This document shows, in pieces, positions 7,089-26,794 of a stretch of DNA of 28,453 nt. A program made the position numbers and the translations under genes. Numbering within the stretch: position 1 is the stretch's first letter; each line of letters starts with the position of its first letter. The stretch comes from Rivularia sp. (in: cyanobacteria). Lineage in GTDB: Bacteria > Cyanobacteriota > Cyanobacteriia > Cyanobacteriales > Nostocaceae. The notes below the pieces were generated by a model, which saw nothing but the letters and a program-made list of their open reading frames with translations, had not been told where the DNA came from and made no database searches. Location of the stretch: assembly GCA_050042755.1 (NCBI GenBank), contig JBHJJJ010000149.1, positions 1 through 28,453 of the forward strand, written 5' to 3'.

Positions 7089-9662
7089 ATGAAAGATCTA
7101 TCAGTTTTATTGACTGTAATCACTGAATATCTTGGAGAAACGACTAAAAATCAAGAAGTGCTCAGGGAGAAAGATAACAAGCACTATAATGAAGCAAAGT
7201 TTACTGTTGATAAGACGGGAGAAACTAGAGGCTTTTCGATTCAAAGCAATGCGCCCTTTGAGAAAAAACTTGATGGCAATCAACTTCAAAGTTATCAAAA
7301 GTATTTAGTAAATCCACGGCAAATTAAAGAGTCAAAAGAAGGATCAAAAAAATATCCTACCCTAGAGAGTAATCATATTTGGTTTGATGCGCTTTATGCC
7401 CTAGCCATGGAAGAAGTTCGTCAATGTTCGGTGTCTGAGATTAAAGATGGTGCCTATAATAATGGAAATTCTATCTCGGCACCTGATGGGGGATATTTTG
7501 AGACAGGTTTATTCTGGACTTATGTTTGGACAAGGGATACTTCCTATTCTGTGGATCTGAGTTTAGCTGTTATTGACCCAATTAGGTCATTAAATTCTTT
7601 AAATTTTAAGCTCTCTGAACGCCGTGAAGGAGGCAATCTTCAAATCATACAAGACACAGGCACGGGGGGTAGTTATCCCATTTCAAGCGATCGCGTTAGT
7701 TTCAGTTTTGGTTGTCGTGCTTTGTTGCGACAACTCCAAGGTAAGACGAGGGATGATTTTGCAAGTCATTCCTATGAAGCTCTCAAAAATACTATTGAAC
7801 ACGATCGTCAAGTAATCTTTGATCCCCGACATGGGCTTTACCGAGGAGAACAGTCATTCTTAGATTGGCGGGAGCAAAGTAATCCTAAATGGACTGCTGA
7901 AGATCCGGTGCAAATTGGCATGTGTAAAGCACTTTCTACTAATTGTTGTCATTTTAACGCGCTACAGTTAGCTGCTTCTTTGGCAAGGGAATTAGGTGAG
8001 CCAGAGTCAGAAAATAAGTATAAAAAATGGGCCCAGGAGTTACGTGAAGCGATCCGCACTCATCTGTATTTACCAGAAGAAAAACTCTACTCTACCTTTA
8101 TTACTACAACTTTTGCTCCAGGGGCAGCCCATCAATACGATCTATTGGGCAATGCCTTGGTTATTTTGGTTGGTATTGCTGACGAGGAACAAGCCAGTGA
8201 AATAGTTTCTAACTACCCTCATTTACCGAAAGGAGCTTCTGTAATTTGGCCTCAACAAAGGGATACCCCCATTTACCATAATCAAGCAATTTGGCCCTTT
8301 GTTACGGCTTATTGGCTCAGAGCGGCGAAAAAAGTCAAAAACGATCGAGTAGTCACCCTTGGATTAAGTTCCTTAGTTAGAGGTGCTGCCTTAAGTTTAT
8401 CGAATATGGAAAATTTCGATGCAGATACTGGGCTTGTTGAAATAGACTCGCAAGAAAAACAACCTGTAGTAAATTCTCCACGTCAGTTATGGTCGGTGGC
8501 AGGTTATTTATCGGCGATTCATGAGCTTATTTTTGGAATCAGTTGGACGGATTCAGGAATTCTCATCGATCCTTATATTACCCGTGAATTTCGTAATTGT
8601 CTTTTACCCAAGTCAAATCAATTGGTCTTAAATGGCTTGCTTTATAAGGAGCATCAACTGGATATTACAATTAATTTGCCTCCTACTACTAAAGAAATGG
8701 CAGGAGCTTATGCAGTTGGAGAAATTCGTCTTAATGGACAACAGATAAAGATCGGCTCAGAGATTATTGAATCAATGCTTGACGATCGCAATACCCTTGA
8801 GGTTAAATTAGTTGAGGGTAGTACAGAAACTTCTTCGATTAATCTTGTTACCAATCTGAAAGATTATCGATACAGATTTGCGCCTAGACCACCTATAGTT
8901 GATTCTATAATTGCAATAGATCATCAATTAGAAATAAAGTTTCATCTTGATGGTGAAAATCCTTCGGAAGTTACAATTAATGTTTATCGAGATGGAGATT
9001 TAGTTGCCCAAGGATTATCTGGACATAGTACTAGTTGGCGCGATCCAAACAGTCAGGGGACTCAATCACCTAGCTACTGTTACAACTTAGAAGCAGTTTA
9101 CATCAGTGGCGGTACGACTTCCCAACGTTCTAAACCTTTCTGTTATTGGGGAGATAATAGCGATCGCATTTATTTTGTAGATGCCGATCAATTTTCCGTA
9201 ACCGGGGGCGATCGTCCTATTTCTTCTAGACATGGTAAAAACCATTATGAAAATTGGGGTAAACCTGATGATAGTATCACAGTTAAGATAAAACCTAAGT
9301 TTGATGGTCCTCATGCTATTCAGGTAGTGGCAGCAAATGGTGCAGGCCCCATCGATACGGGAATTACTTGTGCTGTAAAACACTTGCAAATGAAAGATTC
9401 ACAAGATCAAATAGTTGCAGATGGTTATTTAGTAATGCCTCATCTTGGTAAGTGGGATCGCTGGTTAGAGTCTTCGGTTATTTATACCGAAGTGGACTTA
9501 ATCAAAAATCGAGAATACGAAATCAGTATTTTTGGTGACGAAGGAGCCATAAATATGTCAACTTTTAAACACAATGAAGAATATACAGGTGGCAAAGGAG
9601 GAACCGGAGGAGCTTACAATTATGTAAATATTGCTCAAGTAAAGTTGAATGCTTTAAGCTAA
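7089..9662 (+). CDS. Putative (alpha/alpha)6-barrel glycoside hydrolase (GH15 / glycogen-debranching-like catalytic domain) with about 270-aa C-terminal beta-sandwich/CBM-like region
   Basis: 857-aa ORF. The WxRD block FWTYVWTRDTSYS, YRGEQSFLDWRE, IWPFVTAYWL and PRQLWSVAGYL resemble (alpha/alpha)6 glycosidase signatures. No signal peptide. Family assignment is tentative. Confidence 0.55.
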   Translation: MKDLSVLLTVITEYLGETTKNQEVLREKDNKHYNEAKFTVDKTGETRGFSIQSNAPFEKKLDGNQLQSYQKYLVNPRQIKESKEGSKKYPTLESNHIWFDALYALAMEEVRQCSVSEIKDGAYNNGNSISAPDGGYFETGLFWTYVWTRDTSYSVDLSLAVIDPIRSLNSLNFKLSERREGGNLQIIQDTGTGGSYPISSDRVSFSFGCRALLRQLQGKTRDDFASHSYEALKNTIEHDRQVIFDPRHGLYRGEQSFLDWREQSNPKWTAEDPVQIGMCKALSTNCCHFNALQLAASLARELGEPESENKYKKWAQELREAIRTHLYLPEEKLYSTFITTTFAPGAAHQYDLLGNALVILVGIADEEQASEIVSNYPHLPKGASVIWPQQRDTPIYHNQAIWPFVTAYWLRAAKKVKNDRVVTLGLSSLVRGAALSLSNMENFDADTGLVEIDSQEKQPVVNSPRQLWSVAGYLSAIHELIFGISWTDSGILIDPYITREFRNCLLPKSNQLVLNGLLYKEHQLDITINLPPTTKEMAGAYAVGEIRLNGQQIKIGSEIIESMLDDRNTLEVKLVEGSTETSSINLVTNLKDYRYRFAPRPPIVDSIIAIDHQLEIKFHLDGENPSEVTINVYRDGDLVAQGLSGHSTSWRDPNSQGTQSPSYCYNLEAVYISGGTTSQRSKPFCYWGDNSDRIYFVDADQFSVTGGDRPISSRHGKNHYENWGKPDDSITVKIKPKFDGPHAIQVVAANGAGPIDTGITCAVKHLQMKDSQDQIVADGYLVMPHLGKWDRWLESSVIYTEVDLIKNREYEISIFGDEGAINMSTFKHNEEYTGGKGGTGGAYNYVNIAQVKLNALS

Positions 9663-9767
9663 AGTTTTTTGTCTGTTGGCTTTACACTGTTAGGGCTTCT
9701 GAGAAACTAAAAATCAAGCTATATAAGGCGTTATAAGTTATAAACAATATCTTTGAAGGAGTAAAAT

Positions 9768-11645
9768 ATGGGTGAAATTAAGGTAAAACCGAGAGTGATT
9801 GATTGCGAGACTGCCTCTAATAAAGAATACGATGTTGTGATCGTGGGAGCAGGAGTAGCCGGAGCAATAGTCGCCAAACAATTAAGCGAACAGGGAAAGA
9901 CTGTTTTAATAGTTGAGGCAGGATCTGGAAAGGATTTAACCCTTGAAGGCTATCAAAGTTACGTCGATCATTTTCATTCTGCTTTAGGAAAGGATAACAA
10001 TGCCCCTTATCCTAGAAATCCCAATGCTCCAAGTCCTAGGAGTCCTGATGTCAGCAAATTGATTCCAGGGCAGATTGATGCAAGTGCATATTTAGTACAG
10101 CGAGGACCTTTAGCCCTTGACAGTACCAATACCAGGGCTACTGGCGGGACAACTATGCATTGGGAGGGGAAAACCCCACGCATGTTACCAGGGGATTTCA
10201 AATTACGCAGTACATATGGACAAGGACTAGATTGGCCCTTTGACTATGACCATCTGATGCCCTACTTCAGGATTGCCGAGAGGGAGCTAGGGGTTTCAGG
10301 TAATGTAGAAGATCAAATAAAGCTAGGGGGGGTATATAAAGAAGACTATGTCTTCCCGATGAAAGAGATGCCTCCCTCTTACTTAGATAAGACAATTAAG
10401 GAAAAAATTGATAATAGCACAGTAGAATTGGATGGTGAAACTTATACATTAGATGTGCTGACTTTTCCCCAGGCTAGAAATGGTATACCCAATCCCGATT
10501 ACTACAAAGGTGTTGACGATTACCGCGAGGGCGATCGCTTCGATCCTGATGGACTGACTAGCGTACATCCTGTTGAATATGGTGAACGTTGCCAAGGTAA
10601 CGCCAACTGCGTGCCTATTTGTCCCGTTCAAGCGAAGTATGATGCCCGCAAAACTTTAGGTAAAGCATTTAATACCGAACGAGTGGATATACTTCCTCAG
10701 GCTGTGGCATCCAAGATTGAAATTAACCCTGAAAACAATCGAGTTACTGCCGTTCACTTTAAGTGCTATCAGGATAAGAACTCTCCGAAGCATGAAACCG
10801 GAATAGCGAAAGGTAAACTGTTTGTACTAGCAGCCAATGCAGTAGAGAATGCTCGATTGCTTCTGTCTTCAAATCTTCCAACAACCAAAAGCAGCGAATT
10901 GATTGGCAGACATCTGATGGATCACCCTTATGTACTCTGCTGGGGATTGATGCCTGAAGTGACTGGCACTATGCGAGGGCCTTTGTGTACATCAGGAATC
11001 GTAGCATTTCGTAAAGGTGATTTTCGTCACAAGCAAGGTGCATTTGCGATCGATATCCATAATGATGGTTGGGGCTGGGCAACTGGTTCTCCCGACACTG
11101 ATGTTCTTGATATTATTGATAACAAAAACAAGTACGGTAAGGGACTGCGCGAAGAACTGGTAAGTAAAATCTCGCGACAGTTATTGCTTGCTTGTATGTG
11201 TGAGTTACCTGCCGATCCCAGTAACCGAGTGACAATAGATCCCAATTATACAGATCCTTTAGGTAATTATCGCCCTGTGATATCCTTTAACATATCTGAC
11301 TACTGTAAGAGGACACTTGCTTATGCAAGATATATCTGTAGTCTGGTCTTCCAGCGCTTGGGAGCAGAGGAATATACACACTACGATCCATCTGACTACG
11401 GATATTTTACTTATGAAGGTGAGGGCTATGTCTTCCGGGGTGGTAACCACTATGCAGGCACTCATGTAATGGGTACTAGCCCAGATAATTCTGTTGTTGA
11501 CAAGCATCAGCGTTCTTGGGATCATAAAAATCTTTATTTAGTAGGCGCTGGTAGCATGCCAACCATTGGTAGTTCTAACACAACTGTCACACTTTCAGCT
11601 ATGACTTTTTACAGTACAGAGCAAATGCTCAAAGACTTAAATTAA
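9768..11645 (+). CDS. GMC-family FAD-dependent sugar/polyol dehydrogenase catalytic subunit with Cys-rich 3Fe-4S-type motif
   Basis: Strong RBS aaggag. FAD fold DVVIVGAGVAGAIVAKQL...VEAG. C-terminal GMC block HYAGTHVMGT...NLYLVGAGSMPT. Motif C-QGNAN-C-VPI-C-PVQAKY at 10590-10640. Confidence 0.85.
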   Translation: MGEIKVKPRVIDCETASNKEYDVVIVGAGVAGAIVAKQLSEQGKTVLIVEAGSGKDLTLEGYQSYVDHFHSALGKDNNAPYPRNPNAPSPRSPDVSKLIPGQIDASAYLVQRGPLALDSTNTRATGGTTMHWEGKTPRMLPGDFKLRSTYGQGLDWPFDYDHLMPYFRIAERELGVSGNVEDQIKLGGVYKEDYVFPMKEMPPSYLDKTIKEKIDNSTVELDGETYTLDVLTFPQARNGIPNPDYYKGVDDYREGDRFDPDGLTSVHPVEYGERCQGNANCVPICPVQAKYDARKTLGKAFNTERVDILPQAVASKIEINPENNRVTAVHFKCYQDKNSPKHETGIAKGKLFVLAANAVENARLLLSSNLPTTKSSELIGRHLMDHPYVLCWGLMPEVTGTMRGPLCTSGIVAFRKGDFRHKQGAFAIDIHNDGWGWATGSPDTDVLDIIDNKNKYGKGLREELVSKISRQLLLACMCELPADPSNRVTIDPNYTDPLGNYRPVISFNISDYCKRTLAYARYICSLVFQRLGAEEYTHYDPSDYGYFTYEGEGYVFRGGNHYAGTHVMGTSPDNSVVDKHQRSWDHKNLYLVGAGSMPTIGSSNTTVTLSAMTFYSTEQMLKDLN

Positions 11646-11741
11646 TCGATATCTATTAGGTTTAAGAGTCTTGTATCTTAAGCAAAAAAGTGGGAAAAAG
11701 TTCAACCTTATATTACAGAATCGGAAATTGCCAGGGGAGAT

Positions 11742-12947
11742 ATGGTAAGCACAAACAAGGATAATTATGCCATTTCAAGTATTGAGAACTTGCGCGAGTA
11801 TCTGTATTGGGCAATGAGTATTGAACATTCAACGATTCCGCCTTACATCATGGCACTCTACTCGATTAAGCCCGGTACAAATCTACAAGCATTCCAAATA
11901 CTTCGCTCTGTTGCCGTAGAAGAAATGCTGCACCTAACTCTAGCAGCCAATGTCTTTAATGCTGTTGGAGGAAAGATCGAAAATACTTTGAGTGGTTCTG
12001 ACTTTATCCCAGAATATCCAACCACCATAGCAACGGGAGAAGACGACTTTGAAGTTTCCCTAGAGAAATTTTCTAGGCAAAGTGTAGAAACTTTCCTCAA
12101 CATTGAACGTTCAAAACATGTGCCTGAAGATAAACCATTAGTGGGAAAAAGAGATCCCAAAAAAAGGTGGTTGACACGTGTTCCTAAGACTGGAAAGGAG
12201 GAAGGTTTTAGTTTCTATAGCATTGGGCTGTTCTATGCAGAGATTATCCGTGGTTTGAATGCCTTGTATAGAGAGCATCGTGACGATCTGTTTTGTGGCG
12301 ATCCTCAGCGGCAAATTACACCTGATTATTACTTTGATGGTGGAGGGGAAATTATCCCAGTTAAGAATCTACGCTCTGCAATACGTGCTTTGAAGATGAT
12401 TCAAGATCAAGGAGAGGGTTCGAGACAAGGAAGTATCTATGATGCAGAAAGAGAGCTTTCCCATTATTGTCGTTTTGAACAATTGTTGATCTTGGATACA
12501 AAGTATAGATCGGACTTGAAGAAAAACTTGCAAGATGAATTGGGTGATGGCTGGAAAGATGTATTGGGTGAAGACTGGAAAGAAGATGTGGGTGGAGACG
12601 GCTGGGGGCAATATTACCGGATAGATAGAGATAATCCAGAGAAATCCGATAAGCCATTTCATCCTACTGGTGAAAAATTTAAAGTTGATTGGGACGCTGT
12701 TTATCCCGTTAAGGACAATGCTAAGCTAAGTGATTACCCAGAAGGATCTGAGTTGCATACTGCAGCGAAGGAATTCCAGTCCAGCTACAAAGATTTCCTT
12801 GGTAAGATTGAGTACTCCTTTGATGGGCATCCCGATCGTTTAATTCCCGCAATCGGTGGCATGTTCAAGCTTAAGTATGGGGCTGAGCGGATAATGAAAA
12901 ATCCGATTCCAGGAGAGGAAGGAGTTAATGGCGCACCAATCTTCTGA
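11742..12947 (+). CDS. Ferritin-like (putative diiron) domain protein
   Basis: 401-aa ORF. N-terminal SIEHSTIPPYIMALYSI block typical of ferritin-like domain proteins. Two ExxH motifs: EMLH (codons 11922-11933) and ELSH (12453-12464). RBS ggggag. Confidence 0.65.
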   Translation: MVSTNKDNYAISSIENLREYLYWAMSIEHSTIPPYIMALYSIKPGTNLQAFQILRSVAVEEMLHLTLAANVFNAVGGKIENTLSGSDFIPEYPTTIATGEDDFEVSLEKFSRQSVETFLNIERSKHVPEDKPLVGKRDPKKRWLTRVPKTGKEEGFSFYSIGLFYAEIIRGLNALYREHRDDLFCGDPQRQITPDYYFDGGGEIIPVKNLRSAIRALKMIQDQGEGSRQGSIYDAERELSHYCRFEQLLILDTKYRSDLKKNLQDELGDGWKDVLGEDWKEDVGGDGWGQYYRIDRDNPEKSDKPFHPTGEKFKVDWDAVYPVKDNAKLSDYPEGSELHTAAKEFQSSYKDFLGKIEYSFDGHPDRLIPAIGGMFKLKYGAERIMKNPIPGEEGVNGAPIF

Positions 12948-12952
12948 TTAGA

Positions 12953-13097
12953 CTAGGGCGTATTTTCAAACCCTAACCGCTCTCAGGCTAAAGCCTGGAG
13001 CTATACAAAAGGTGCCCTTAAAGGGCTAAAAACCCTAATTTTTCTAGCCCGCTGCCACGGCGAATTTAGTGACGGCGAATTTGAAAACACGCCCTAG
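12953..13097. mobile_element. MITE-like element (145 bp) with 18-bp terminal inverted repeats
   Basis: Left TIR ctagggcgtattttcaaa (12953-12970) against right TIR tttgaaaacacgccctag (13080-13097), 17/18 complementary. Internal direct repeat acggcgaattt x2. Non-coding. Begins 6 bp after the stop at 12945-12947. Confidence 0.75.
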
Positions 13098-13134
13098 CCT
13101 TTAGACATAAACGCCGTTCAAAAATTTGACTGTG

Positions 13135-13162
13135 CAATCTCCGTATTCAAAAACGGAGATTG
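13135..13162. other. Perfect 10-bp stem / 8-nt loop hairpin in the leader of the small-subunit gene
   Basis: caatctccgt-attcaaaa-acggagattg. No T-tract on either side, so its function is unclear. Confidence 0.6.
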
Positions 13163-13218
13163 TTAAAGGCTGTCAAAACTGTGAGAGGAACTGAAATTTT
13201 TGTAGAGGAGAACAACCA

Positions 13219-13830
13219 ATGGGCACTAATAAAACTAAGACTGAGTTGATAGAGTATTTTCTAGATTTCTCAGCAGTGATAACTGGCTTTTATAAGTTTT
13301 ACTTACGAGGAACAGGTCAAGTTGACTCATACTACGACACCGTTAATAATATTATTGGCACGGAAATGTTTGAGGGATTGTTAATAACATTCCATAATCT
13401 TGATCTGAAAGCGAAAGCTGAGGGTGATAACTCAGTTTTGAATGAAGGGATTCTCCGTGATATCCTGGGTTCTGAAAAATTCGGTGCGATCTCTCGCAAC
13501 ATCATCAAACTCTGGTATCTAGGTACCTGGTATGAACTGCCTACATCATGGCGGGAAAAATTTGGTAATAAGGAGAAAGATATAAACTTTGTTGTAAGTC
13601 CACAAGCTTATAATGAAGGACTTTTGTGGCCTACCCTTAGCGTTAATCCTCGTGCTGCAAAAGCACCGGGATATGGCACCTGGGCTGAGGCTCCTTATGA
13701 ACCCCCTAAAATATACGATATTAAGGATACTAACTCACTCGAAGATGTGAAAAGCGTAGATTCTGACATTTTGAAGTCGAAACCAGTTGACATTGGCACC
13801 AAAGTATTAAACAAAACAAAATCTAACTGA
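13219..13830 (+). CDS. Small (gamma-like, 'hitch-hiker') subunit of FAD-dependent sugar dehydrogenase complexes (sorbitol-DH small-subunit family), lacking a Tat signal
   Basis: FLDFSAVITG, IIKLWYLGTW and VVSPQAYNEGLLWPTL...APGYGTWAEAP are collinear with the Burkholderia FAD-GDH gamma subunit as I recall it. RBS gaggag. No RR signal at the N-terminus. Confidence 0.6.
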   Translation: MGTNKTKTELIEYFLDFSAVITGFYKFYLRGTGQVDSYYDTVNNIIGTEMFEGLLITFHNLDLKAKAEGDNSVLNEGILRDILGSEKFGAISRNIIKLWYLGTWYELPTSWREKFGNKEKDINFVVSPQAYNEGLLWPTLSVNPRAAKAPGYGTWAEAPYEPPKIYDIKDTNSLEDVKSVDSDILKSKPVDIGTKVLNKTKSN

Positions 13831-13853
13831 AAAATCAAACGTAAAAAACAAGT

Positions 13854-14543
13854 ATGAACATTCAACCTTGGTTTCGTAAACTTTCTACTATTGCCCTGAT
13901 AATTATCGTTAGTTTAACGATATTTACTGCACCATCTTATGCTTTTGTCCCTAGCGATAAAGTACAGATCAATGTAAATCACTTGAAGAAGACAAATGAA
14001 TGTAATCAATGCGATCTATCAGGGGCAAATTTGTCTGGAGCCGATTTATATGGCAGTGCGCTGCTTGAAGCCAATCTATCGGGAGCAGATCTATCTGATG
14101 CCTTACTGAATGATGCCAAGCTAAAAGGAGCGAATTTATCGGGAGCGAATTTATCTAATGCCCTGCTCATGGGCATAACCTTGTCGGAAGCCAATCTAAC
14201 AAACGCTAATTTATCCAGTGCAGATTTGTACAATGCTCTTATGGAGAGTACAACATTGTCAGGAGCAGATTTAACAGGTGCCGATCTAACCTCGGCTATT
14301 TTATCTGAAACGGATTTGTCTAATGTTGATGGTGAAAATGTCAATTTAGATCAAGCAATTTTAAATAAAGCTAATCTATCGGGAGCAAATTTTACCCACG
14401 CTAAAATGAGAAATGCTAGGTTAGCCGAAGCCATACTTGAAGGAACCAAGCTGTTTGAGGCCGATCTATATCGTGCTGTTATGCCTGACACTACTATCTA
14501 TAAGGGAAAGGGAGATGTGTCAAAATTCGGTGCTTATCAGTAG
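13854..14543 (+). CDS. Pentapeptide-repeat protein with N-terminal signal peptide
   Basis: Hydrophobic N-terminus ending PSYA|F, followed by about 30 consecutive A(N/D)LSx pentapeptides (ANLSGADLYGSALLEANLSGADLSDA...). Confidence 0.9.
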   Translation: MNIQPWFRKLSTIALIIIVSLTIFTAPSYAFVPSDKVQINVNHLKKTNECNQCDLSGANLSGADLYGSALLEANLSGADLSDALLNDAKLKGANLSGANLSNALLMGITLSEANLTNANLSSADLYNALMESTTLSGADLTGADLTSAILSETDLSNVDGENVNLDQAILNKANLSGANFTHAKMRNARLAEAILEGTKLFEADLYRAVMPDTTIYKGKGDVSKFGAYQ

Positions 14544-14572
14544 CAGTCGATTATTCAATTAAAGATTTTTAG

Positions 14573-14701: not shown

Positions 14702-14753
14702 TGATTTTTTGTTCTCCTCAAACAACTTTTTAGTCTCATAACAGGATGCACCG

Positions 14754-15854
14754 ATGTTAAAACAAATTAGACGATTGTTGATTTCTGTTGTTATTTTGAT
14801 GTTATTCGGGATTTCAACTCCACTGCCAGCCAAAGCTGTGACAATCGATCCTCTGACGGGTGAGGATAAGTTGCCTTTGAAGATTTGCCGAGTCGGAGAA
14901 GCCCCTAAACCCCCCATTTTTGAACGCAAAAAAGTTCATTTGGGCATTACTCCCACAGGTTGGAGCAATAGTGACGATCGTAGTATCGATTTGGTTCCTC
15001 CTATCCCTTACCAGCAGATTCTAAGTGAAATGGAACTGGCTGGCTTCAAAGGCTCGCAAGTATCTCCAAAATATCCTGCAGACATCGATATTTTGCATGA
15101 CGAGTTAGAATTGCGTAAGTTAAAGATTTCTGAACCTTGGGTAGGAACTAAGTTCACTACCAATAGGAGCGAAGTTAGCAAGGAAATCTTCCATCAACAG
15201 ATGGACTATATGAAGAGCCTGGGTGATAGGGCTAGCAAGATCATTGTGGTGGCTGAACTAGGTGGTGCTGTCCATCAACAACCTGTTGAACCCTTAAACA
15301 ACAGACCTATTTATAGCGATGAACAATGGGATAAATTGACTGCAGGATTAAATGAGATAGGAAAAGAAGCACATGAAGCAGGGATGCGCTTAGTTTACCA
15401 TCCCCATGTGGGAACAGGAGTGGAAACGAGAAAGGATATCGATCGGTTAATGAACAACACCGATCCTAAATATGTCAAATTACTCCTTGATACTGGTCAT
15501 CTTTACTACGCAGGAGTCGATCCTCTTAAAGTTACCGAAGATTACGCCTATCGCATCGGGCACGTTCACTTAAAAAACATTCGTAAGGACAAGTTAGATG
15601 ACTCTCAAAACAAAAAGCTAAGCTTTATAGAGTCTATCAAAAATGGCGTATTTACCGTTCCTGGTGATTGCAGTGGGGTGATTGAGTTTGAGCCAATTTT
15701 CAAAGCACTTGCCAATTTCAAAGATAAAAAAGGAGAAGATAAAACATATAAAGGATGGTTAGTAGTTGAAGCCGAACAAGATCCAAACAAAGCCGAACCT
15801 TTGCTATACGCCCAAACAGCTCGTAAGTATCTACATCAAGTTACTGGTTTGTAA
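14754..15854 (+). CDS. Inosose dehydratase (IolE)-like xylose-isomerase-fold TIM-barrel enzyme with N-terminal signal peptide
   Basis: From HLGITPTGWSNSDD onward it is collinear with B. subtilis IolE as I recall it (VYHPHVGTGVET, DRLMNNTDPK, LLLDTGH, GVFTVPGDC, YKGWLVVEAEQDPNKAEPL). A 58-aa N-terminal extension begins MLKQIRRLLISVVILMLFGISTPLPAKA|V. Confidence 0.85.
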   Translation: MLKQIRRLLISVVILMLFGISTPLPAKAVTIDPLTGEDKLPLKICRVGEAPKPPIFERKKVHLGITPTGWSNSDDRSIDLVPPIPYQQILSEMELAGFKGSQVSPKYPADIDILHDELELRKLKISEPWVGTKFTTNRSEVSKEIFHQQMDYMKSLGDRASKIIVVAELGGAVHQQPVEPLNNRPIYSDEQWDKLTAGLNEIGKEAHEAGMRLVYHPHVGTGVETRKDIDRLMNNTDPKYVKLLLDTGHLYYAGVDPLKVTEDYAYRIGHVHLKNIRKDKLDDSQNKKLSFIESIKNGVFTVPGDCSGVIEFEPIFKALANFKDKKGEDKTYKGWLVVEAEQDPNKAEPLLYAQTARKYLHQVTGL

Positions 15855-16114: not shown

Positions 16115-16507
16115 ATGTCCGATCGTGATGGTGAAGAAATTAAAAGAGTGTTTGAGCGAGTGTATGTTGATAATGTAAGACATAAAAAGGTTGAAGATTA
16201 CGGTAAAATGTACACAGAAGAGGCGCGCTGGATGCCTCCTGATGCAAAAGATCGCTGCGGTAAGGACGATATTATTGAAGGGTTTGCACAATCTGTCGCT
16301 CACCAAGATATTGAACCTTTTTTCAAGGCTGATGAAATTAATATCAACAATGATTTTGCTTATGTAATAGGTACCTCAGTGGCAAATATTTATCCTAATG
16401 ATGGAAGCCCACCCAAAGAAGTCAAATTTCGAGCTTTGTGGTTGATGAAAAAAGTGAACGGAGAGTGGAAAATTGACCGTCAAATTTGGAATAAGAAACC
16501 ACTGTAA
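16115..16507 (+). CDS. NTF2-like (SnoaL/DUF4440-type) small protein
   Basis: 130 aa counted from the ATG preceded by the RBS aaaaggagag. Size and pattern (EARWMPPD...EWKIDRQIWN) are typical of the NTF2-like fold. The ORF-track start at 15971 (GTG) has no RBS. Confidence 0.5.
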   Translation: MSDRDGEEIKRVFERVYVDNVRHKKVEDYGKMYTEEARWMPPDAKDRCGKDDIIEGFAQSVAHQDIEPFFKADEININNDFAYVIGTSVANIYPNDGSPPKEVKFRALWLMKKVNGEWKIDRQIWNKKPL

Positions 16508-16583
16508 TCTTGTATTTTGTGCATCGACTACTAGTAAGTAGTGCGCTTGATTTGATTTGACTGGCTCGTTTTTCCACAACCGT

Positions 16584-16799: not shown

Positions 16800-17816
16800 A
16801 TGAGTAACCCTTCATCTTTGCCCGATATTTACCTCAGCTTTTTCATGTTTACTACAGATATGCAACCCGACGATCCAAAATATCGGGAAATCGTCGTTAA
16901 GCATATTAAAGAGCTACAAACATACGGTTATAAAGGGTTTGAGTTTCCCATTGCCCCCAAGTTTCCCCTAGATAGTATCAATGATGTAGAAAGCTATACT
17001 CGCTTGCGCGATTATTTAGATGAGCAAGGATTATCAGATGTTGCAATTGCGACTAACGTCATGGCAACGCGAACCTACGATCCAAGTTCTCCTTATCAGA
17101 AACAACGCCACGAAGCTTTAGAATATCTGAAATCAAGAGTTGATATTACTCACACAATGAGGGGAGAAATTATGATGGGTCCCATTGTGATTCCCTATGG
17201 TGATTTTCCTACCACAGATTTTAACGATCCTATTTGGAGCGATGAGTTACAGGATGAGTTAGCCCAACGTTATAAAAATGCTCATCATACTCTTAATCAA
17301 CTAGGTGAATATGCAGAGAAGAGAAACGTTAAATTAGCGATCGAACCGATCACCCATTGGGAAACTCCTGGGCCTAACAAATTGTCTCAATTAATTGACT
17401 TTCTTGAAGGGGTGAAGAGTAAACATGTGGGTGTTGTGATCGATAGCGCCCACGAAATTCTTGATGGAGATGGACCAGAAAAGTTTAAAGAGCATGTTGC
17501 CTATTTAGCTAAAGAGGGACGGCTTCATTATATCCAAGTTTCTCCTCCCGATCGCGGAGCCGTTGACACCAGTTGGATACCTTGGCAATCTTTCTTAAAA
17601 CCGGTTTTACAAGTTTATCAAGGACCGATTGCCGTAGAAATCTTTAATGCCATTCCTGCCTTTCTCAACGGCTTGCGTCTGACGCGACGCAAGTTTTGGA
17701 TACCAGGCGAGGATAAGGAAAATAAACCCTATCCCAGTGCTTATGAAACGGCTAACAACGCTATCCAAGCCACTCAAAGAGAACTGACGAAAATTCTCGA
17801 AAATTCTAACTGTTAA
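16800..17816 (+). CDS. Xylose-isomerase-like TIM-barrel protein (sugar phosphate isomerase / ketose 3-epimerase-like)
   Basis: RBS aaaggag. E-D-H-E metal-ligand pattern in the blocks KLAIEPITHWE, VVIDSAHE, HYIQVSPPDRG and IAVEIFN. Confidence 0.7.
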   Translation: MSNPSSLPDIYLSFFMFTTDMQPDDPKYREIVVKHIKELQTYGYKGFEFPIAPKFPLDSINDVESYTRLRDYLDEQGLSDVAIATNVMATRTYDPSSPYQKQRHEALEYLKSRVDITHTMRGEIMMGPIVIPYGDFPTTDFNDPIWSDELQDELAQRYKNAHHTLNQLGEYAEKRNVKLAIEPITHWETPGPNKLSQLIDFLEGVKSKHVGVVIDSAHEILDGDGPEKFKEHVAYLAKEGRLHYIQVSPPDRGAVDTSWIPWQSFLKPVLQVYQGPIAVEIFNAIPAFLNGLRLTRRKFWIPGEDKENKPYPSAYETANNAIQATQRELTKILENSNC

Positions 17817-17864
17817 ATCAAGATTCCCAATTCCAGTTCTGATTTCAGATTTGAAAAGATACTT

Positions 17865-19919
17865 ATGATCGTAGCTAGAAGATTAACTCAACGAATACGG
17901 ATTATCCCATTTTTTCTCACCATTGTTCTCGCCTTAAGCCTAGTTTTGAGCGGGTGGGAAGAAGCGATCGCCGATACTGCGATCGGTAGTAAAGAAACAA
18001 TGGGAGCCTGGGAAACTATTCCCATGCCACCCCAGAAGGATCGTATGCAATCTGTCCATACCATTCTCTTGCCCAATGGCAAAATTTTAATGGTTAGTGG
18101 TAGCAGTTTTCGCAGCCGCTACTATATTGATGAGAATGGTAAAGAGCATTTTAAAGAGGGTGTAGATCCTAATAACCAGGAGTTTTTTAATAATTCTGGC
18201 TTATTCGATCCAGAAACAGGAACATTTGAACACATTCCCTCGCCTCCTTCACTGTTATTCGATGAAGAACTAAAAGCTAATACAGGCAACGATCTGTTTT
18301 GTTCTGGTCACGTGCAGTTATCTAATGGTAATGTGTTATTTGTGGGGGGAACAGCACGTTATTACCCTGGAGGGGCTTTTAGCGGATCGAAGTGGTTGCA
18401 GCTTTACAACTGGCGCACGGGAGAATGGTCAAAACTCGACCAGATGAAAGATGGGCGTTGGTATCCCAGTCAAATCACTCTCCACGATGGTAAGGTAGCA
18501 ATTTTTTCCGGTTTAACATTTGGCACACCAAACGAAGTTAATCCCAGTTTAGAAATTTACGATCCCGAAACCCAAAAACTTCAGTACATCGATCTCACAC
18601 GAGTGAGAAATAGTCCCTTTAACACTAAAGTGGAAAATGAATATGACCAGGATCTTTACGATAGCATTGACCTTTATCCTCGCATCTTTTCTTTAGCCGA
18701 TGGAAGGCTTTTGATTAGCGGAGATGATGCAGGTATTGCCGGGGTATTGGTGCCTCATTTCAGTAAAAAAAGCTATCTAATGACTATTAATGATACTGGT
18801 TCGGGGGAAGTGTCTGTTAGTTTTGAAGTGGGGCCCGACAGAATAGAAACAACTAAAGCCTACGGAACTGGACTACAAATTCCCGATTCTGAAGACGTAT
18901 TGTTATTTGGTGGAATTATCGGCACCAATAGCATTAGTTATGGACGGCGTGGCAATACTAAAAACTTTCCTAAAGGCAGTCGAGTATCTACCAGTTTACA
19001 ACATTGGATTTCCCCAGAAAATAGTGGAGAGAAGAACGGTAAATGGGAAATAGTTGATAATTTCCTGGATAAACCGAGAGCTAATTTACAGGCTGTGATC
19101 TTACCCACCAAAGAAATTTTAGTAATCAATGGAGGTGAATTTCCCGAATACAAACCCGTCTATGAACCCTTGTTGTTGACTCCCGATAAAGATAAAGATA
19201 AAGAATCGGGCTATAAAAAACGATCGCTTAATAAGGCTCATCTTCCCAGACTCTACCATAATGGAGCAGTTTTATTGCCAGACGGGCGGGTATTTATTGT
19301 GGGAGGAAATGCCAACCGAGCTGGAATTGAAGAAAACGGAACGGTTCATGTGGATGTTTTGGGCGATCCTAAGACTTTTTTCACTACCGCGAAGTTAACA
19401 AATAAATCAGGCGAGGAAGAGAAATTTGACATCGATACTTTCTACCAAGATCCACAACATTATTACGTTGAGAGCGATGCGGGGCATTGCGACAAAGAAC
19501 TTTGCGATAAGGAACCTTTTGTTCCCGCAGAAATTTGGCAACCAGAGATTTTTAGTCCTCCCTATTTACAAAACCCAGGAGAGCGTCCTGAAATTATCAG
19601 CGCACCTGATACCCTCAAATATAATCAATCTAGCACGATTGAAGTTGACGATAAGATCAACAAAAATGGTTCTCTGGTTCTGGTGAAACTAGGATCTGTT
19701 ACCCATTCATTTGATTATGGACAACGGTTAGTTGATTTACATGCAAACCGGTTAGTTGATTACCCAGCAGGTGATTATGAGAACCTTAAATATCGAAGTA
19801 CAGTAAACTTTAAAACGCCCAGCAACGCCCATCTATATCCGCCAGGATACTACATGATGTTTTATATCAATGACTCTGGCGTACCTACCATCGCCAAAAT
19901 TATCCAACTTGAAGCGTAA
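17865..19919 (+). CDS. Copper-radical oxidase (galactose oxidase / glyoxal oxidase family, Kelch beta-propeller + C-terminal DUF1929-like domain), exported or membrane-anchored
   Basis: Cross-link Cys in DLFCSGH (18300-18302), Tyr in GRWYPSQ (18462-18464), Tyr-His in RLYHNGAVLLPDGRVFIVGGN (19254-19259), His in VTHSFDYGQR (19704-19706). Hydrophobic N-terminus IIPFFLTIVLALSLVLSGW. Confidence 0.85.
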   Translation: MIVARRLTQRIRIIPFFLTIVLALSLVLSGWEEAIADTAIGSKETMGAWETIPMPPQKDRMQSVHTILLPNGKILMVSGSSFRSRYYIDENGKEHFKEGVDPNNQEFFNNSGLFDPETGTFEHIPSPPSLLFDEELKANTGNDLFCSGHVQLSNGNVLFVGGTARYYPGGAFSGSKWLQLYNWRTGEWSKLDQMKDGRWYPSQITLHDGKVAIFSGLTFGTPNEVNPSLEIYDPETQKLQYIDLTRVRNSPFNTKVENEYDQDLYDSIDLYPRIFSLADGRLLISGDDAGIAGVLVPHFSKKSYLMTINDTGSGEVSVSFEVGPDRIETTKAYGTGLQIPDSEDVLLFGGIIGTNSISYGRRGNTKNFPKGSRVSTSLQHWISPENSGEKNGKWEIVDNFLDKPRANLQAVILPTKEILVINGGEFPEYKPVYEPLLLTPDKDKDKESGYKKRSLNKAHLPRLYHNGAVLLPDGRVFIVGGNANRAGIEENGTVHVDVLGDPKTFFTTAKLTNKSGEEEKFDIDTFYQDPQHYYVESDAGHCDKELCDKEPFVPAEIWQPEIFSPPYLQNPGERPEIISAPDTLKYNQSSTIEVDDKINKNGSLVLVKLGSVTHSFDYGQRLVDLHANRLVDYPAGDYENLKYRSTVNFKTPSNAHLYPPGYYMMFYINDSGVPTIAKIIQLEA

Positions 19920-19994
19920 TTCTTCATTTAACAAAGTTATCTGTCAAAGACAAGCAGAAGAAGCTCCTTGTATGGGTTAAAGCAACTATAGTAT

Positions 19995-20035
19995 AGACAA
20001 GGTAATTTAGCTTGCTCCCGATACTTACCTTGTCT
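19995..20035. other. Perfect 11-bp inverted repeat with 19-nt spacer between the oxidase and peroxidase genes
   Basis: agacaaggtaa (19995-20005) and ttaccttgtct (20025-20035), 40 bp upstream of the ATG at 20075. Confidence 0.6.
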
Positions 20036-20074
20036 CCAAGAGGTAGCAAAATTAAATCAAAAGGTTACAAACAT

Positions 20075-21574
20075 ATGGCACTCACAGAAGCAGATTTAAA
20101 AAATCTTCCTAAAGACGGAATCGATGCAGAAGATCCGGGTAAGTATGAAACATTACTTAAAGATTTACAGGGAAATATTTTGAAATCACATGGAAGAGAG
20201 CACAGCGTGCATCTGTTTTTAAAATGGAAATCCGATCGAGTTTATCATGCGAAAAAATGGATAAAAGACTTTGCAACAGATCCAGATCCCGAAGATAAAC
20301 AAGCCGAAGATAAAAATAAGGATAAATATAAAATATATGTAACATCAGCTTATAGGCAAGCACAAGAAGCGGCACATTTTAGAGTAACTAAAACAGAAGG
20401 GGAGATATTCGCCAATGTTTTCTTCAGTCGTAAAGGCTATGAAGCATTAGGATTCGATCCCTTTGATGTTCCTAAAGATCAGCCCTTTACTATGGGGATG
20501 AAGAATACTCGAGTTAAAGAAATGTTAAAAGATCCGGAGGTTGAAGAATGGGAAAAAGGGTATCAAAGTGATATCGATGCCTTAATTTTAATCGCCGATG
20601 ACGATCTAAACATATTATTGCAAGCTGTCAACCGAATTACTCCAGGGTTGCGTGAAGTTGCCGAAATTGTTCACCGAGAAGATGGCTTCGTGCTTAGAAA
20701 CGAAAATAATCAAGTCAGAGAACATTTTGGCTTCGCGGATGGGGTAAGTCAACCCTTATTTCTCAAACGAGACATTGTTAAAGCTCGAACCAACGATTGT
20801 AATTTTAGTCAATGGGATCCTAGAGCTTCCTTAGATATTATTCTGGTTAAAGATTACAATGGCAAAACAGAAGATAGTTATGGCAGCTTTTTGGTATATC
20901 GTAAATACGAGCAAGCTGTTCAAACTTGGGTTAAGTATGTACTGGAACTGACCAAAAAGTTGGGTAAAAATCCGAACAATATGGCGGATGCTCTCTACGC
21001 CGGTGCTTTAGTAATGGGACGTTTCCATGACGGAACTCCAGTTACTAAGTCTGATATCCCGACTCATGCTGCTGCCCCAACTAATAACTTTAATTATGAT
21101 GCTGATATTAAGGGGATGAAATGTCCATTTCAAGCTCATACACGGAAAACTAATCCTAGAGGAGATACAGGGAGAGTAGAGTCTTCTCAAAATTACGATG
21201 TAGATTTTGCGATCGAGAAAAGCCGTCGTATTGCTCGTCGAGCCATTAGTTATGGCCAGAGTAAAGACATCATGAACACTCCAGATACAGGCTCGGGATT
21301 ACTCTTCCTTTGTTTTCAAGCTGATATTGCCAAGCAATTTAATTTTTTACAGGATAGATGGGCAAATCCCGATCGCTTCGTGAAAGTTGGTGTAGGTACC
21401 GATCCGGTAATTGGGCAACCCGGTTGCAACCAGGATTCACCTGTACAACATAAATGGCCTCAAAAATGGGGTGAAGCCGATACCGTAGATTATCCTTTTC
21501 AGAAATCGATTACGATGAAAGGTGGAGAATATTTCTTTGCTCCGAGCATCAGTTTTCTCCAAAGTTTAGTTTAG
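20075..21574 (+). CDS. DyP-type haem peroxidase
   Basis: LQGNILKSHGR N-terminal block. GxxDG motif FGFADGVSQPLF (Asp codon 20738-20740). Proximal-His block FQAHTRKTNPRG (His codon 21137-21139). LLFLCFQADI near the C-terminus. Start set at ATG 20075 rather than the TTG at 20012. Confidence 0.85.
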   Translation: MALTEADLKNLPKDGIDAEDPGKYETLLKDLQGNILKSHGREHSVHLFLKWKSDRVYHAKKWIKDFATDPDPEDKQAEDKNKDKYKIYVTSAYRQAQEAAHFRVTKTEGEIFANVFFSRKGYEALGFDPFDVPKDQPFTMGMKNTRVKEMLKDPEVEEWEKGYQSDIDALILIADDDLNILLQAVNRITPGLREVAEIVHREDGFVLRNENNQVREHFGFADGVSQPLFLKRDIVKARTNDCNFSQWDPRASLDIILVKDYNGKTEDSYGSFLVYRKYEQAVQTWVKYVLELTKKLGKNPNNMADALYAGALVMGRFHDGTPVTKSDIPTHAAAPTNNFNYDADIKGMKCPFQAHTRKTNPRGDTGRVESSQNYDVDFAIEKSRRIARRAISYGQSKDIMNTPDTGSGLLFLCFQADIAKQFNFLQDRWANPDRFVKVGVGTDPVIGQPGCNQDSPVQHKWPQKWGEADTVDYPFQKSITMKGGEYFFAPSISFLQSLV

Positions 21575-21613
21575 GTTTTTTTTCACCAAAATATTTAATC
21601 CGAGAAGAACAAC

Positions 21614-24600: not shown

Positions 24601-24661
24601 TACTCTTCAAAATCAATTGAAAAATTACTCTCTTGCCGGTAGAACATCTCCTATAAAGTAA
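21614..24661 (+). CDS. GH63-like (MGH1-type) (alpha/alpha)6 glucosidase family protein
   Basis: 1015-aa ORF. N-terminal WGPYVSDRQWGTVREDYS...FPHDQARSRAYRWGEDG, then DKWEYPWFAAWDLAFH and NWRGPIWMPVNFL, which are typical of bacterial GH63-like 'glucosidase' proteins. Confidence 0.7.
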   Translation: MTQIEQTQEGKRIVENRQKTNDWKKWGPYVSDRQWGTVREDYSPDGSAWDFFPHDQARSRAYRWGEDGIAGICDNYQQLCFAIALWNGADPILKERLFGLTGGKTDTGNHGEDVKEYYFYLDNTPTHSYMKCLYKYPQAEYPYGDLVSVNGRNGKQSPEYELLDTKVFEENRYFDVFIEYAKNTPEDILIKISVTNQGPDQKTLDLLPTLWFRNTWSWGLFNVDSKFQTDLDRSHFSEELKQEFQSNGINCSGVEVKIQSQGNEWLITDKENQQTYTVKTSHQQLTVYPEKPSVRETKSTSEFSVVEAYTPGIPGSESGFKKWLYCQQPQEMLYTENETNKARFGWGSNTSPYVKDGINNYVVRKQKNAVNPNKEGTKVSASYELNIAPRQTKTVYLRLCDSENLTAPFDQFETIFQNRKNEADEFYQAVNPHKISDEIRDVQRQAFAGMLWSKQFYYYVVHQWLNGDPAGPTPPESRKRWKKDENGEKGRNVEWTHLYSEDIISMPDKWEYPWFAAWDLAFHTISFSLIDPDFAKNQLRLLMREWYLHPNGQIPAYEWNFGDVNPPVHAWATWRVYEIDEKMKGEGDVDFLEEVFQKLNLYFTWWTNRKDVDDKNIFSGGFLGLDNIGPIDRSHLKPGETIEQADGTAWMGMYCLKMLRIAAELARKTKKPVYETMVSNYFLHFLLIADAMNKIGGNDVNLWNEQEGFYEDVLMTSNQAIQVKARSMVGLIPLFAVETLDETILDEFCSEEFKERFEWFMKNRSDLTQHGNISIIRQKIEKSLDTQQDSKILLSLVSPQRLQRILTKMLDESEFLSPHGIRSVSKYHKQHPFVINFDGQNGSVDYEPAESRINLFGGNSNWRGPIWMPVNFLLVESLQIFDYFLGEQFTVEYPTRSGDQKSLWDVSTDLSYRLIEIFLKNSDGDRPVYGGSQTMFGATNKLQTDENWKNYILFFEYFHGDNGAGLGASHQTGWTGLVAKLIQQYGEYSVQGNSTDTLQNQLKNYSLAGRTSPIK

Positions 24662-26783: not shown

Positions 26784-26794
26784 ATGGCTAAAAG

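Follow-up and report, generated by a model that had tools for sequence, protein, structure and literature searches.

A conserved cyanobacterial gene cluster around a cross-phylum module of predicted 3Fe-4S dehydrogenase, ferritin-like and xylose-isomerase-fold proteins

Introduction

Do eleven same-strand genes for sugar-oxidizing and glycosidase-like proteins in a Rivularia genome belong to one system and, if so, what might that system do? The genes lie in a 28,453-nt stretch of Rivularia sp. DNA (GenBank assembly GCA_050042755.1, contig JBHJJJ010000149.1). Here, the window is this whole stretch, the island is positions 7089-24661, and the flanks are positions 1-7088 and 24662-28453. A preliminary description, made from the sequence alone, had presented the island as an uncharacterized oxidative carbohydrate-processing locus. 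We followed up its claims by open reading frame (ORF) checks, family and structure searches, and a comparison of gene neighborhoods. We tentatively read the island as a nine-gene cluster conserved in cyanobacteria and joined here by two facultative glycosidases, with, at its center, a cross-phylum module for oxidative sugar processing in which a soluble variant of the 3Fe-4S dehydrogenases with a ferritin-like redox partner would feed keto-sugar enzymes; we regard this reading as somewhat short of probable.

Results

Nine of the eleven genes form a conserved cyanobacterial core

Neighborhoods were gathered in three ways, from homologs of the ferritin-like protein, by a scan of GTDB species genomes, and by a protein search of annotated plasmids, and all eleven window proteins were mapped onto them. 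A GTDB scan with a single IolE-like sequence returned no confirmed relative; an alignment of the ferritin-like protein succeeded instead and found relatives in at least 579 species representatives from more than six phyla, the best 80 loci of which supplied neighborhoods. One plasmid match, from Streptomyces H21, carried no annotation. Counts below refer to the well-flanked loci, 12 cyanobacterial and 44 non-cyanobacterial.

The ORF check returned eleven ORFs, all on the plus strand and at exactly the positions listed by the preliminary description (Table 1). The first gene product, GHa, matches a protein from a Rivularia sp. metagenome-assembled genome (MAG) with 100% identity. Nine of the genes (9768-21574) constitute a core. 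They encode, in order, a GMC-family FAD dehydrogenase (GMC), a ferritin-like protein, a small helical protein, a pentapeptide-repeat protein, a first xylose-isomerase-fold enzyme (TIM1), a DUF4440 protein, a second xylose-isomerase-fold enzyme (TIM2), a Cu-radical oxidase, and a dye-decolorizing peroxidase (DyP). This core was complete in 11 of the 12 cyanobacterial loci and is conserved across cyanobacterial orders at protein identities down to 51-65%.

The gene order of the window is the usual one, being identical in loci L001, L002, L007-L010, L012, L015, L017, L021, L024, L087, L089, and L091/L092 (our identifiers). In Pleurocapsales, the cluster is arranged in two divergent blocks, GMC/ferritin-like/small/pentapeptide and TIM1/DUF4440/(DUF4904)/TIM2/oxidase/DyP. 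These blocks have changed places in a Leptolyngbyaceae MAG, in Microcystis, and on a plasmid of Gloeothece PCC 7822. The content is complete in all four of these arrangements. The pentapeptide gene, present in 12/12 cyanobacterial loci versus 0/44 elsewhere, always follows the small-protein gene. For the nine-gene core, grouping by chance can be ruled out. The functional linkage that had been proposed for the island is borne out by the co-location of its genes in many genomes; the preliminary description had itself said that genes never found together elsewhere would count against it.

The eleven-gene unit as such did not survive the comparison. GHa and the last gene product, GHb, are facultative, recurrent partners of the core: the five closest relatives (70-89% identity) carry exactly the nine core genes and neither glycosidase. 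GHa lies directly before GMC in Microcystis (L093) and inside the Leptolyngbyaceae cluster (L019), and is unlinked to the cluster in Calothrix and Coleofasciculus. GHb follows DyP in L010 and adjoins the cluster in six further cyanobacterial loci (L013, L014, L015, L017, L019, and L024); about 11 non-cyanobacterial loci have an enzyme of its type next to the module. Directly upstream of its GMC gene, L087 carries the ABC-ATPase found in the window together with an intact MoaA.

Some further features of the cyanobacterial clusters are recorded here. In L001, L087, L089, L091, and L092, a DUF4231/SLATT_3 gene comes after DyP, at the place that GHb holds in the window, and PqqD-like genes flank several clusters. 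The window is mosaic in identity: its GMC, ferritin-like, and small proteins are 70-86% identical to those of L001 and 52-65% to those of L010, the proteins from pentapeptide to DyP resemble those of both loci to a similar degree (69-83%), and the GHb of L010 is 77% identical to that of the window. This pattern suggests recombination between cluster variants. Additional genes occur in some clusters (L093 of Microcystis, L009, L012, L017, L019, L006, L011, and L023), namely, DUF4904 between DUF4440 and TIM2, and an MRJP/Yellow-like gene beside the oxidase or DyP, and the Gloeothece plasmid locus L083 also has DJ-1/PfpI and VOC proteins. These extra genes hint at reactive carbonyl or quinone chemistry.

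A dehydrogenase trio with a ferritin-like protein in place of a cytochrome

GMC is, judged by its sequence, a member of the catalytic-subunit family of the 3Fe-4S FAD glucose/fructose/sorbitol dehydrogenases. It matched the alpha subunit of the B. cepacia FAD-dependent glucose dehydrogenase (FAD-GDH) (6a2u_B, 5.1e-75) and the large subunit of a fructose dehydrogenase (FDH) (7w2j_A, 1.1e-64), with both halves of the protein covered. In the B. cepacia enzyme (BcGDH), Cys212, Cys218, and Cys222 ligate the 3Fe-4S cluster, while Cys213 forms a disulfide to the gamma subunit (PMC6719666). The island protein has the motif C-Q-G-N-A-N-C-V-P-I-C, in which C275, C281, and C285 align to the three ligands and a Gln occupies the position of the disulfide Cys. 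We observed the cysteine-ligand pattern in 77 of 78 orthologs, and the GxGxxG motif and N560-H561 were invariant. A look-up of the exact GMC protein sequence gave no record. An H2O2-forming oxidase type was considered for GMC and ruled out by its membership of the 3Fe-4S FAD-dehydrogenase complexes and its retained cluster cysteines. As a member of this family with the cluster cysteines, GMC would therefore require an electron-accepting partner.

The next gene encodes a ferritin-like protein. Its AlphaFold2 model (pLDDT 83, pTM 0.85) showed the ferritin-superfamily fold, and the sole significant match in a fold search was 3hl1 (CC_0557), which the PDB labels merely "ferritin like protein." E28, H29, E60, E61, H64, E122, E225, and H241 are at least 97% conserved among 82 cross-phylum sequences, from which a putative di-metal center with carboxylate and His ligands is predicted. 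In 54 of the 56 well-flanked loci, the ferritin-like gene stands next to the genes for GMC and the small protein.

The third protein had been labeled a dehydrogenase small subunit. Family labels were upheld for the ten other proteins by Pfam, NCBIfam, or PDB matches; that of this 203-aa protein is weakly supported, with no significant match in Pfam or NCBIfam and an empty Foldseek search. Four distant members of the family gave collinear, sub-threshold matches to PF12318 (FAD-SLDH; E 0.012-0.11), and the family profile matched the small subunit of fructose dehydrogenase (7w2j_B) at E = 1.6. The family, which has 883 cluster representatives in a profile search, conserves a C-terminal PGYGxWAxPP that resembles the gamma-subunit loop P156-G-F-W-A..P163, which covers the 3Fe-4S cluster (PMC6719666). 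No Tat (twin-arginine translocation) signal was present among 75 orthologs, and the island protein has no Cys. The small protein is a probable Tat-less counterpart of the gamma, or small, subunit of the FAD-dehydrogenase complexes.

Natural fusions connect the second and third proteins: in four database proteins (P0217, P0218, P0033, and P0086), a complete PF12902 ferritin-like domain is followed by the small protein at the C terminus. In P0273 and P0299, the small-protein domain stands behind a different N-terminal region of ~300 aa, helical and repetitive in appearance. In the clade of the window, the small protein also has a C-terminal extension of ~30-45 residues (~160-203), low in complexity and poorly modeled, giving 191-203 aa versus ~160 aa elsewhere.

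No CxxCH heme c motif occurs in any of the eleven island proteins, and Pfam scans found no cytochrome domain. GMC, the ferritin-like protein, and the small protein would most likely form a soluble complex in which, as we infer, the ferritin-like protein takes the electron-accepting role of cytochrome c.

The module recurs outside cyanobacteria

The heart of the island proved not to be specific to cyanobacteria: GMC, the ferritin-like protein, the small protein, and the IolE-type TIM1 form a cross-phylum module. Accompanied by a GH63-like enzyme or by another TIM barrel, it was found in Actinomycetota, Alpha- and Gammaproteobacteria (Rhizobium and Vibrio), Bacteroidota, Planctomycetota, and Chloroflexota, and it is common on rhizobial plasmids. 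The trio was present in 42 of the 44 non-cyanobacterial loci, TIM1 in 41, and TIM2 in 31. An (alpha/alpha)6 hydrolase of any kind accompanied it in 39 loci: GH15, in some cases with a trehalase-like N terminus, in 31; GH63-like in 10; and GDE_N/GDE_C in 10. TIM2 and the GH63-like enzyme were nearly mutually exclusive (30 loci with TIM2 only, 9 with the GH63-like enzyme only, 4 with neither, and 1 with both).

Half of the loci (22/44) had a thiamine diphosphate (ThDP)-dependent enzyme resembling keto-acid decarboxylases, and 22/44 had a metallo-beta-lactamase (MBL)-fold hydrolase. We considered IolD for the ThDP enzyme, an identity that would have pointed to inositol breakdown, and ruled it out; the enzyme is indolepyruvate/phenylpyruvate-decarboxylase-like. 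The pentapeptide protein and the Cu oxidase were absent from all 44 loci. DyP is rare outside cyanobacteria; one Anaerolineae locus (L041) has it with the module and without the Cu oxidase.

The remaining island proteins

Table 1. Features of the island and its 3' border, with positions in the window
Feature	Positions	Strand	Evidence or remark
GHa, divergent (alpha/alpha)6-barrel glycoside-hydrolase-like protein, 857 aa	7089..9662	+	weak: Bac_rhamnosid6H 5.6e-8, GDE_C 2.8e-6, MGH1-like 8.5e-6
GMC-family FAD dehydrogenase catalytic subunit, predicted 3Fe-4S, without signal peptide	9768..11645	+	GMC_oxred_N and GMC_oxred_C
Ferritin-like protein, predicted di-metal redox partner	11742..12947	+	PF12902 5e-64, 216.6 bits
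Small helical protein	13219..13830	+	203 aa here, about 140-190 aa elsewhere
Exported pentapeptide-repeat protein	13854..14543	+	Pentapeptide 1.5e-39; 23-bp gap from upstream small-protein gene
TIM1, IolE-type (myo-inosose-2 dehydratase family) xylose-isomerase-fold enzyme	14754..15854	+	TIGR04379 318.6 bits, cutoff 290
DUF4440/NTF2-like protein, ~130 aa, cyanobacteria-specific member	16115..16507	+	PF14534 4.6e-15
TIM2, xylose-isomerase-fold, ortholog of 2qw5, distantly ketose-3-epimerase/IolO-like	16800..17816	+	2qw5_A 9.3e-159
Exported Cu-radical oxidase, GlxA/glyoxal-oxidase type	17865..19919	+	GO-like_E_set 1e-22, Glyoxal_oxid_N, Kelch
DyP-type heme peroxidase, ortholog of Alr1585 (AnaPX), no signal peptide	20075..21574	+	TIGR01413 125 bits, cutoff 100.5
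GHb, GH63-like/MGH1-like (alpha/alpha)6 glycosidase, 1015 aa	21614..24661	+	MGH1-like_GH 2.9e-23, GH63 C-terminal 5e-7
Terminator-like G+C-rich hairpin	24744..24772	+	83 bp past GHb stop; 13-bp stem, 10 G-C pairs; top-ranked site in 6100-25400; consensus match only

TIM1 and TIM2 share the xylose-isomerase TIM-barrel fold (PF01261). TIM1 matched the IolE structures 3cny (3.7e-60) and 9zmu (2.2e-60) and is annotated as iolE by the Prokaryotic Genome Annotation Pipeline (PGAP) in Gloeothece, Rhizobium, and Sinorhizobium. For TIM2, the PDB matches next after 2qw5 are epimerases at ~1e-6, and its NCBIfam IolO match (3.3e-11) falls far below the cutoff. As the preliminary description had stated, no canonical iol pathway is present: IolE is the only member, and IolG, IolD, IolB, IolC, and IolA are missing from the window and the related loci. 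Its statement that no transporter, regulator, or kinase lies in the island also agreed with our Pfam scans of 7089-24661.

The Cu oxidase has the features of AA5 enzymes at the sequence level, that is, a Kelch propeller, a C-terminal E-set domain, and the Cys/Tyr/Tyr-His/His set. Its best PDB match is GlxA (4unm, 1.4e-26), and its NCBIfam GlxA match (1.2e-51) lies under the cutoff. C146, Y200, Y464-H465, and H614 are invariant among 16 orthologs; in the alignment with GlxA, C146 and Y200 fall on its DLFC-GH and RWYP motifs. From what is known of GlxA and galactose oxidase, we take these residues to be the Cys-Tyr cross-link, the axial Tyr, and the two His ligands.

DyP starts at the revised ATG at 20075 (MALTEADL...), which gives 499 aa. 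It matched 5c2i (Alr1585) at 7e-183 and DyP2 (4g2c) at 9.5e-71, and the DyP of the Nostoc parmelioides cluster (L009) shares 93.6% identity with 5c2i. D222 of the GxxDG motif, H355, and R388/R389 are invariant. The start of the DUF4440 gene was likewise moved, to the ATG at 16115 (MSDRDGEE...), because its orthologs are ~130 aa long (128-138 aa, beginning MS.RD.EEI). Against the PDB, GHa showed weak similarity only, to GH94 chitobiose phosphorylase, and GHb has no sequence relative there.

The pentapeptide protein, TIM1, and the Cu oxidase carry Sec-type signal peptides in the window and in every cyanobacterial ortholog inspected, in agreement with the export earlier proposed for the pentapeptide protein and the IolE-like enzyme. 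The signal peptide of the pentapeptide protein ends in A-x-A in 23 of 23 orthologs, the oxidase has an N-terminal signal or anchor in all orthologs, and the N-terminal signal and linker of TIM1 occur in all of the cyanobacterial and none of the non-cyanobacterial orthologs inspected. GMC, the ferritin-like protein, the small protein, DUF4440, TIM2, and DyP have no signal peptide in the cyanobacterial orthologs inspected. With three proteins exported and the rest not, the cyanobacterial version would therefore span two compartments.

Gaps, repeats, and HIP1 sites

The gaps between the island genes are, in order, 105, 96, 271, 23, 210, 116, 292, 48, 92, and 39 bp. The gaps had been described as short, which fits seven of them and not the three long ones (210-292 bp, in an overall span of 23-292 bp). 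The long gaps contain inverted repeats with 20-21-nt arms ~90-110 nt apart that look like miniature inverted-repeat transposable elements (MITEs), and tight hairpins, for example TGTAGAGACG...CGTCTCTACA; these elements lie at 12950-13100, 13135-13162, 14573-14701, 15907-15963, and 16583-16612. The MITE-like repeats and hairpins probably account for the unusual gap length.

A scan of the long gaps and the 1-kb upstream region found no riboswitch or known RNA in the island. Promoter and terminator scans gave no excess over shuffled expectation, with 20 terminator-like sites versus 15.7 +/- 3.8 expected, and operon boundaries could therefore not be set. Judged by its sequence match, the hairpin downstream of GHb (Table 1) likely marks the 3' end of the plus-strand gene array.

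Six perfect HIP1 octamers (GCGATCGC) lie in the island, at 7687, 9160, 10531, 17964, 21705, and 24384, where 0.15 would be expected. The 10.9 kb of flanks contain none; ~3.7 would be expected there at the density of the island. The octamers had been noted earlier and taken as a mark of long residence. Their number stands, but they do not show long residence: plasmids carry the cluster in Gloeothece PCC 7822 and in rhizobia, lineages differ in having its order permuted or split, and the window is mosaic with respect to L001 and L010.

Flanking regions

Upstream, on the minus strand, a MoaA gene (radical SAM/Mob_synth_C; 5092-6078) is broken by two consecutive in-frame TAG codons (5779-5784; GGG TAG TAG GCA) and is otherwise one frame; its ortholog in L087 is intact, with 328 aa. 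The double stop could reflect a pseudogene, an assembly error, or something else. Further upstream, at 1504-4601 (minus strand), lie genes for a sulfotransferase (PF19798), a PhyH/ectoine-hydroxylase-like dioxygenase, and an ornithine-cyclodeaminase-like protein, which could be a small cassette for an amino-acid-derived metabolite; the equivalent place in L087 is taken by a 1048-aa protein without Pfam matches.

Downstream of the island are tandem FeoA-domain genes (25420-25767 and 26003-26374, plus strand), with no FeoB in the window. An isiA-like CP43' gene (26795-27850, minus strand) is split into two ORFs by a single in-frame TGA at 27335-27337. This stop falls inside a match to IsrR, the antisense RNA that regulates isiA (27250-27436, plus strand; 130 bits, E = 2e-26). 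The flavodoxin gene isiB follows at 27947-28453. The two FeoA genes, isiA, and isiB make up an iron-stress neighborhood that is not conserved beside the cluster in relatives. A functional link between the island and these genes was considered and rejected; the closest relatives carry DUF4231/SLATT and CHAD genes at this place.

Discussion

A candidate route from sugar to keto-sugar

We reasoned that the trio would act as a soluble cytoplasmic complex. Its substrate, oxidized at the FAD, would be a sugar, most likely glucose or an alpha-glucoside freed by a neighboring hydrolase, and possibly a cyclitol. Electrons would then pass from the FAD through the 3Fe-4S cluster to the carboxylate/His di-metal center of the ferritin-like subunit, which would stand in for the multiheme cytochrome c and hand them to O2 or use them in an oxygenation. 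The keto-sugar or lactone may next be dehydrated or beta-eliminated and isomerized by the IolE-type and 2qw5-type TIM barrels; 3-keto-glycoside beta-elimination by TIM-barrel enzymes is established chemistry (PMC10628242). Cyanobacteria would have added four genes (those of the pentapeptide protein, DUF4440, the GlxA-type oxidase, and the AnaPX-type DyP) and signal peptides on TIM1, the oxidase, and the pentapeptide protein; because these three carry such signals, part of the chemistry would be located in the periplasm or thylakoid lumen. DyP, which is cytoplasmic, probably removes peroxide, or oxidizes a product, coming from the cytoplasmic half. The oxidative keto-intermediate route of the preliminary description is consistent with a sugar dehydrogenase that recurs with IolE-type and epimerase-like TIM barrels and alpha-glucosidase-type hydrolases.

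Several points weigh against this proposal. Among its members, assay, complex, or cofactor evidence is confined to AnaPX, plus the unannotated structure 2qw5. The ferritin-like protein could equally be a substrate oxygenase or a heme-binding protein, and some PF12902 homologs are named "iminophenyl-pyruvate dimer synthase" after the VioB domain. Because cyanobacterial TIM1 is predicted to be exported and the dehydrogenase is not, simple sequential action of the two on a cytoplasmic intermediate would be impossible in cyanobacteria. Catabolic pathways usually have a transporter, kinase, or regulator linked to them, and none is linked here; moreover, a glycosidase is missing within 10 kb from 5 of the 12 cyanobacterial and 5 of the 44 other loci. 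Which carbon is oxidized (C1, C2, C3, or one of a cyclitol) is not readable from sequence.

Other readings can be set against the same evidence. An exported oxidase might act on a surface glycan, with DyP maturing or partnering it and the other enzymes trimming or modifying the polymer of a sheath or exopolysaccharide. GlxA, the nearest relative of the Cu oxidase, works with the DyP DtpA in glycan deposition at Streptomyces hyphal tips (PMC8197335), glycosidases are linked to the cluster, and all cyanobacteria examined have signal peptides on TIM1, the oxidase, and the pentapeptide protein. However, the island DyP is of the AnaPX type and has no signal peptide in any ortholog, whereas DtpA has been described as a Tat substrate; no glycan synthase or glycosyltransferase occurs in the window or related loci; and the core module of GMC, ferritin-like protein, small protein, and TIM barrels is cytoplasmic and oxidase-free in Rhizobium, Streptomyces, Vibrio, and others. 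In one Anaerolineae locus, a DyP joins this module without a Cu oxidase. We thus consider glycan remodeling unlikely, and the extracellular oxidase-peroxidase pairing of the preliminary description weak. The roles suggested there, in sheath or exopolysaccharide remodeling or in the catabolism of a compatible solute, are speculative. Catabolism of inositol-type cyclitols draws on the IolE-type TIM1, which exceeds the equivalog cutoff and bears PGAP iolE labels, on the weak likeness of TIM2 to IolO, and on the frequency of the module on rhizobial plasmids. The FAD dehydrogenase would here replace the NAD-dependent IolG to yield inosose, the IolE ortholog would dehydrate it, and the other enzymes would open and process the ring. 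However, none of the loci seen has the remaining Iol enzymes beside the module, the ThDP enzyme found with it resembles decarboxylases, the steady partners are alpha-glucosidase-type hydrolases (GH15, GH63-like, and GDE), and the nearest characterized relatives of GMC act on glucose and fructose, so that we give this route little credence.

The lack of linked transporters, kinases, and regulators would suit biosynthesis of a sugar-derived small molecule or pigment, in which hexose oxidation and dehydration yield a reactive dicarbonyl or pyrone. This would be further oxidized or coupled by the ferritin-like protein, acting as an oxygenase, together with the Cu oxidase, DyP, and, where it occurs, the MRJP/Yellow-like protein. 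The dimer-synthase name of PF12902 homologs, the glyoxal-oxidase N-terminal domain of the oxidase, and accessory proteins suited to reactive carbonyls or quinones (Gloeothece has DJ-1/PfpI and VOC proteins, and Microcystis, Nostoc, and Leptolyngbyaceae have an MRJP/Yellow-like protein) point the same way. On the other side, the cluster lacks a core biosynthetic enzyme, a tailoring transferase, and an exporter, and the non-cyanobacterial versions, with GH15, MBL-fold hydrolase, and keto-acid decarboxylase, look degradative; a biosynthetic role is improbable in our estimate. Finally, the island could consist of unrelated neighbors that share one strand by chance. Its three long gaps with hairpins, its chance-level number of terminator-like sites, and the absence of the bordering GHa and GHb from the closest relatives would allow this, yet the nine-gene content is kept across orders even where it is permuted or split, which refutes it for the core and makes it very improbable for the whole.

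Returning to the conserved cluster around an oxidative sugar module, we see a bolder possibility in the trio itself, one we hold as doubtful: an unrecognized class of soluble sugar dehydrogenase with a ferritin-fold di-metal protein, not a cytochrome c, as built-in electron acceptor. It might work as a sugar:O2 oxidoreductase that gives water or as a sugar-driven oxygenase, wired in cyanobacteria to an exported GlxA-type oxidase and AnaPX.

Novelty and significance

Full-text searches of the literature open to searching without subscription returned no published description of the module, of PF12902/CC_0557, of 2QW5, or of the alr1577-alr1585 context. Hence, the view that no locus of this composition has been characterized still stands for the searchable literature, and a trio-based dehydrogenase that is widespread in bacteria is apparently undescribed. 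The FAD dehydrogenase family is used in direct-electron-transfer glucose and fructose biosensors. If true, our proposal would add to this family a new design for electron transfer, soluble and with a ferritin-like metalloprotein as partner, and would offer a first functional assignment for a large PF12902 subfamily and for the unnamed small-protein family, the latter now annotated as hypothetical. Genomic context is supplied for two orphan structures, 2qw5 and 5c2i (AnaPX), and the cluster would, if the proposal is right, define the long-missing physiological context of AnaPX. Microcystis and a Nostoc closely related to Anabaena PCC 7120 have the cluster, and rhizobial plasmids have the module; since several of these organisms are tractable genetically, direct tests of these hypotheses should be feasible.

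Comparison with known systems

The island DyP is the ortholog of AnaPX (Alr1585 of Anabaena sp. PCC 7120; 5c2i), which has reportedly been characterized as an isolated dye-decolorizing enzyme; the searchable literature yielded no account of the genes around it. The Streptomyces GlxA-DtpA pair resembles the island in that an exported GlxA-like oxidase with the conserved Cys-Tyr, Tyr-His, and His residues is encoded next to a DyP. DtpA, however, has been described as a class I Tat substrate, whereas the island DyP, near 5c2i and Amycolatopsis DyP2, has no signal. The Streptomyces system also has an adjacent cellulose-synthase-like gene for the glycan synthase CslA; the island contains none like it, and its oxidase-peroxidase pair sits within a sugar-dehydrogenase cluster.

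With myo-inositol catabolism, the island shares the IolE step through TIM1, and it differs in its partners, which are alpha-glucosidase-type hydrolases instead of the other Iol enzymes, and in the signal peptide of cyanobacterial TIM1. The levoglucosan Lgd pathway is another oxidative route in which a keto-intermediate is cleaved. The 3-keto-glycoside beta-eliminase routes (AtOGE and the C-glycoside deglycosidases [CGDs]; PMC10628242) follow a common logic with the island: a hydroxyl is oxidized to a ketone, on which metal-dependent xylose-isomerase-fold TIM barrels then act by beta-elimination or hydration. The OGE, CGD, and Lgd routes use an oxidoreductase of the Gfo/Idh/MocA or POx/CarA type, whereas the island has a 3Fe-4S GMC protein with a ferritin-like partner. 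TIM1 and TIM2 showed no sequence similarity to the solved enzymes of these routes (OGE, CarB/DgpC, and LgdB1), their PDB matches being only IolE, 2qw5, and ketose 3-epimerases, and genes related to an aglycone are absent from the island.

The closest comparison is with the FAD-dependent sugar dehydrogenase complexes, among whose relatives are the sorbitol, 2-ketogluconate, and glucoside-3-dehydrogenases. Characterized relatives oxidize glucose at C1 and fructose at C5. Like the B. cepacia (6a2u/8grj) and Gluconobacter japonicus (7w2j) complexes, the island has a homologous catalytic subunit with the same C-x5-C-x3-C pattern and three genes per enzyme, including a small protein (with weak PF12318/7w2j_B similarity and a P-G-aromatic-x-W-A motif). 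The known complexes are periplasmic and membrane-bound, with a Tat signal on the small "hitch-hiker" subunit; the island enzyme is predicted to be soluble and cytoplasmic because its small protein lacks such a signal. Where FAD-GDH has an inter-subunit disulfide Cys, the island has Gln in GMC and no Cys in the small protein. Where the known complexes have a multiheme cytochrome c subunit, the island has the PF12902 ferritin-like protein, which in some database proteins is fused to the small protein.

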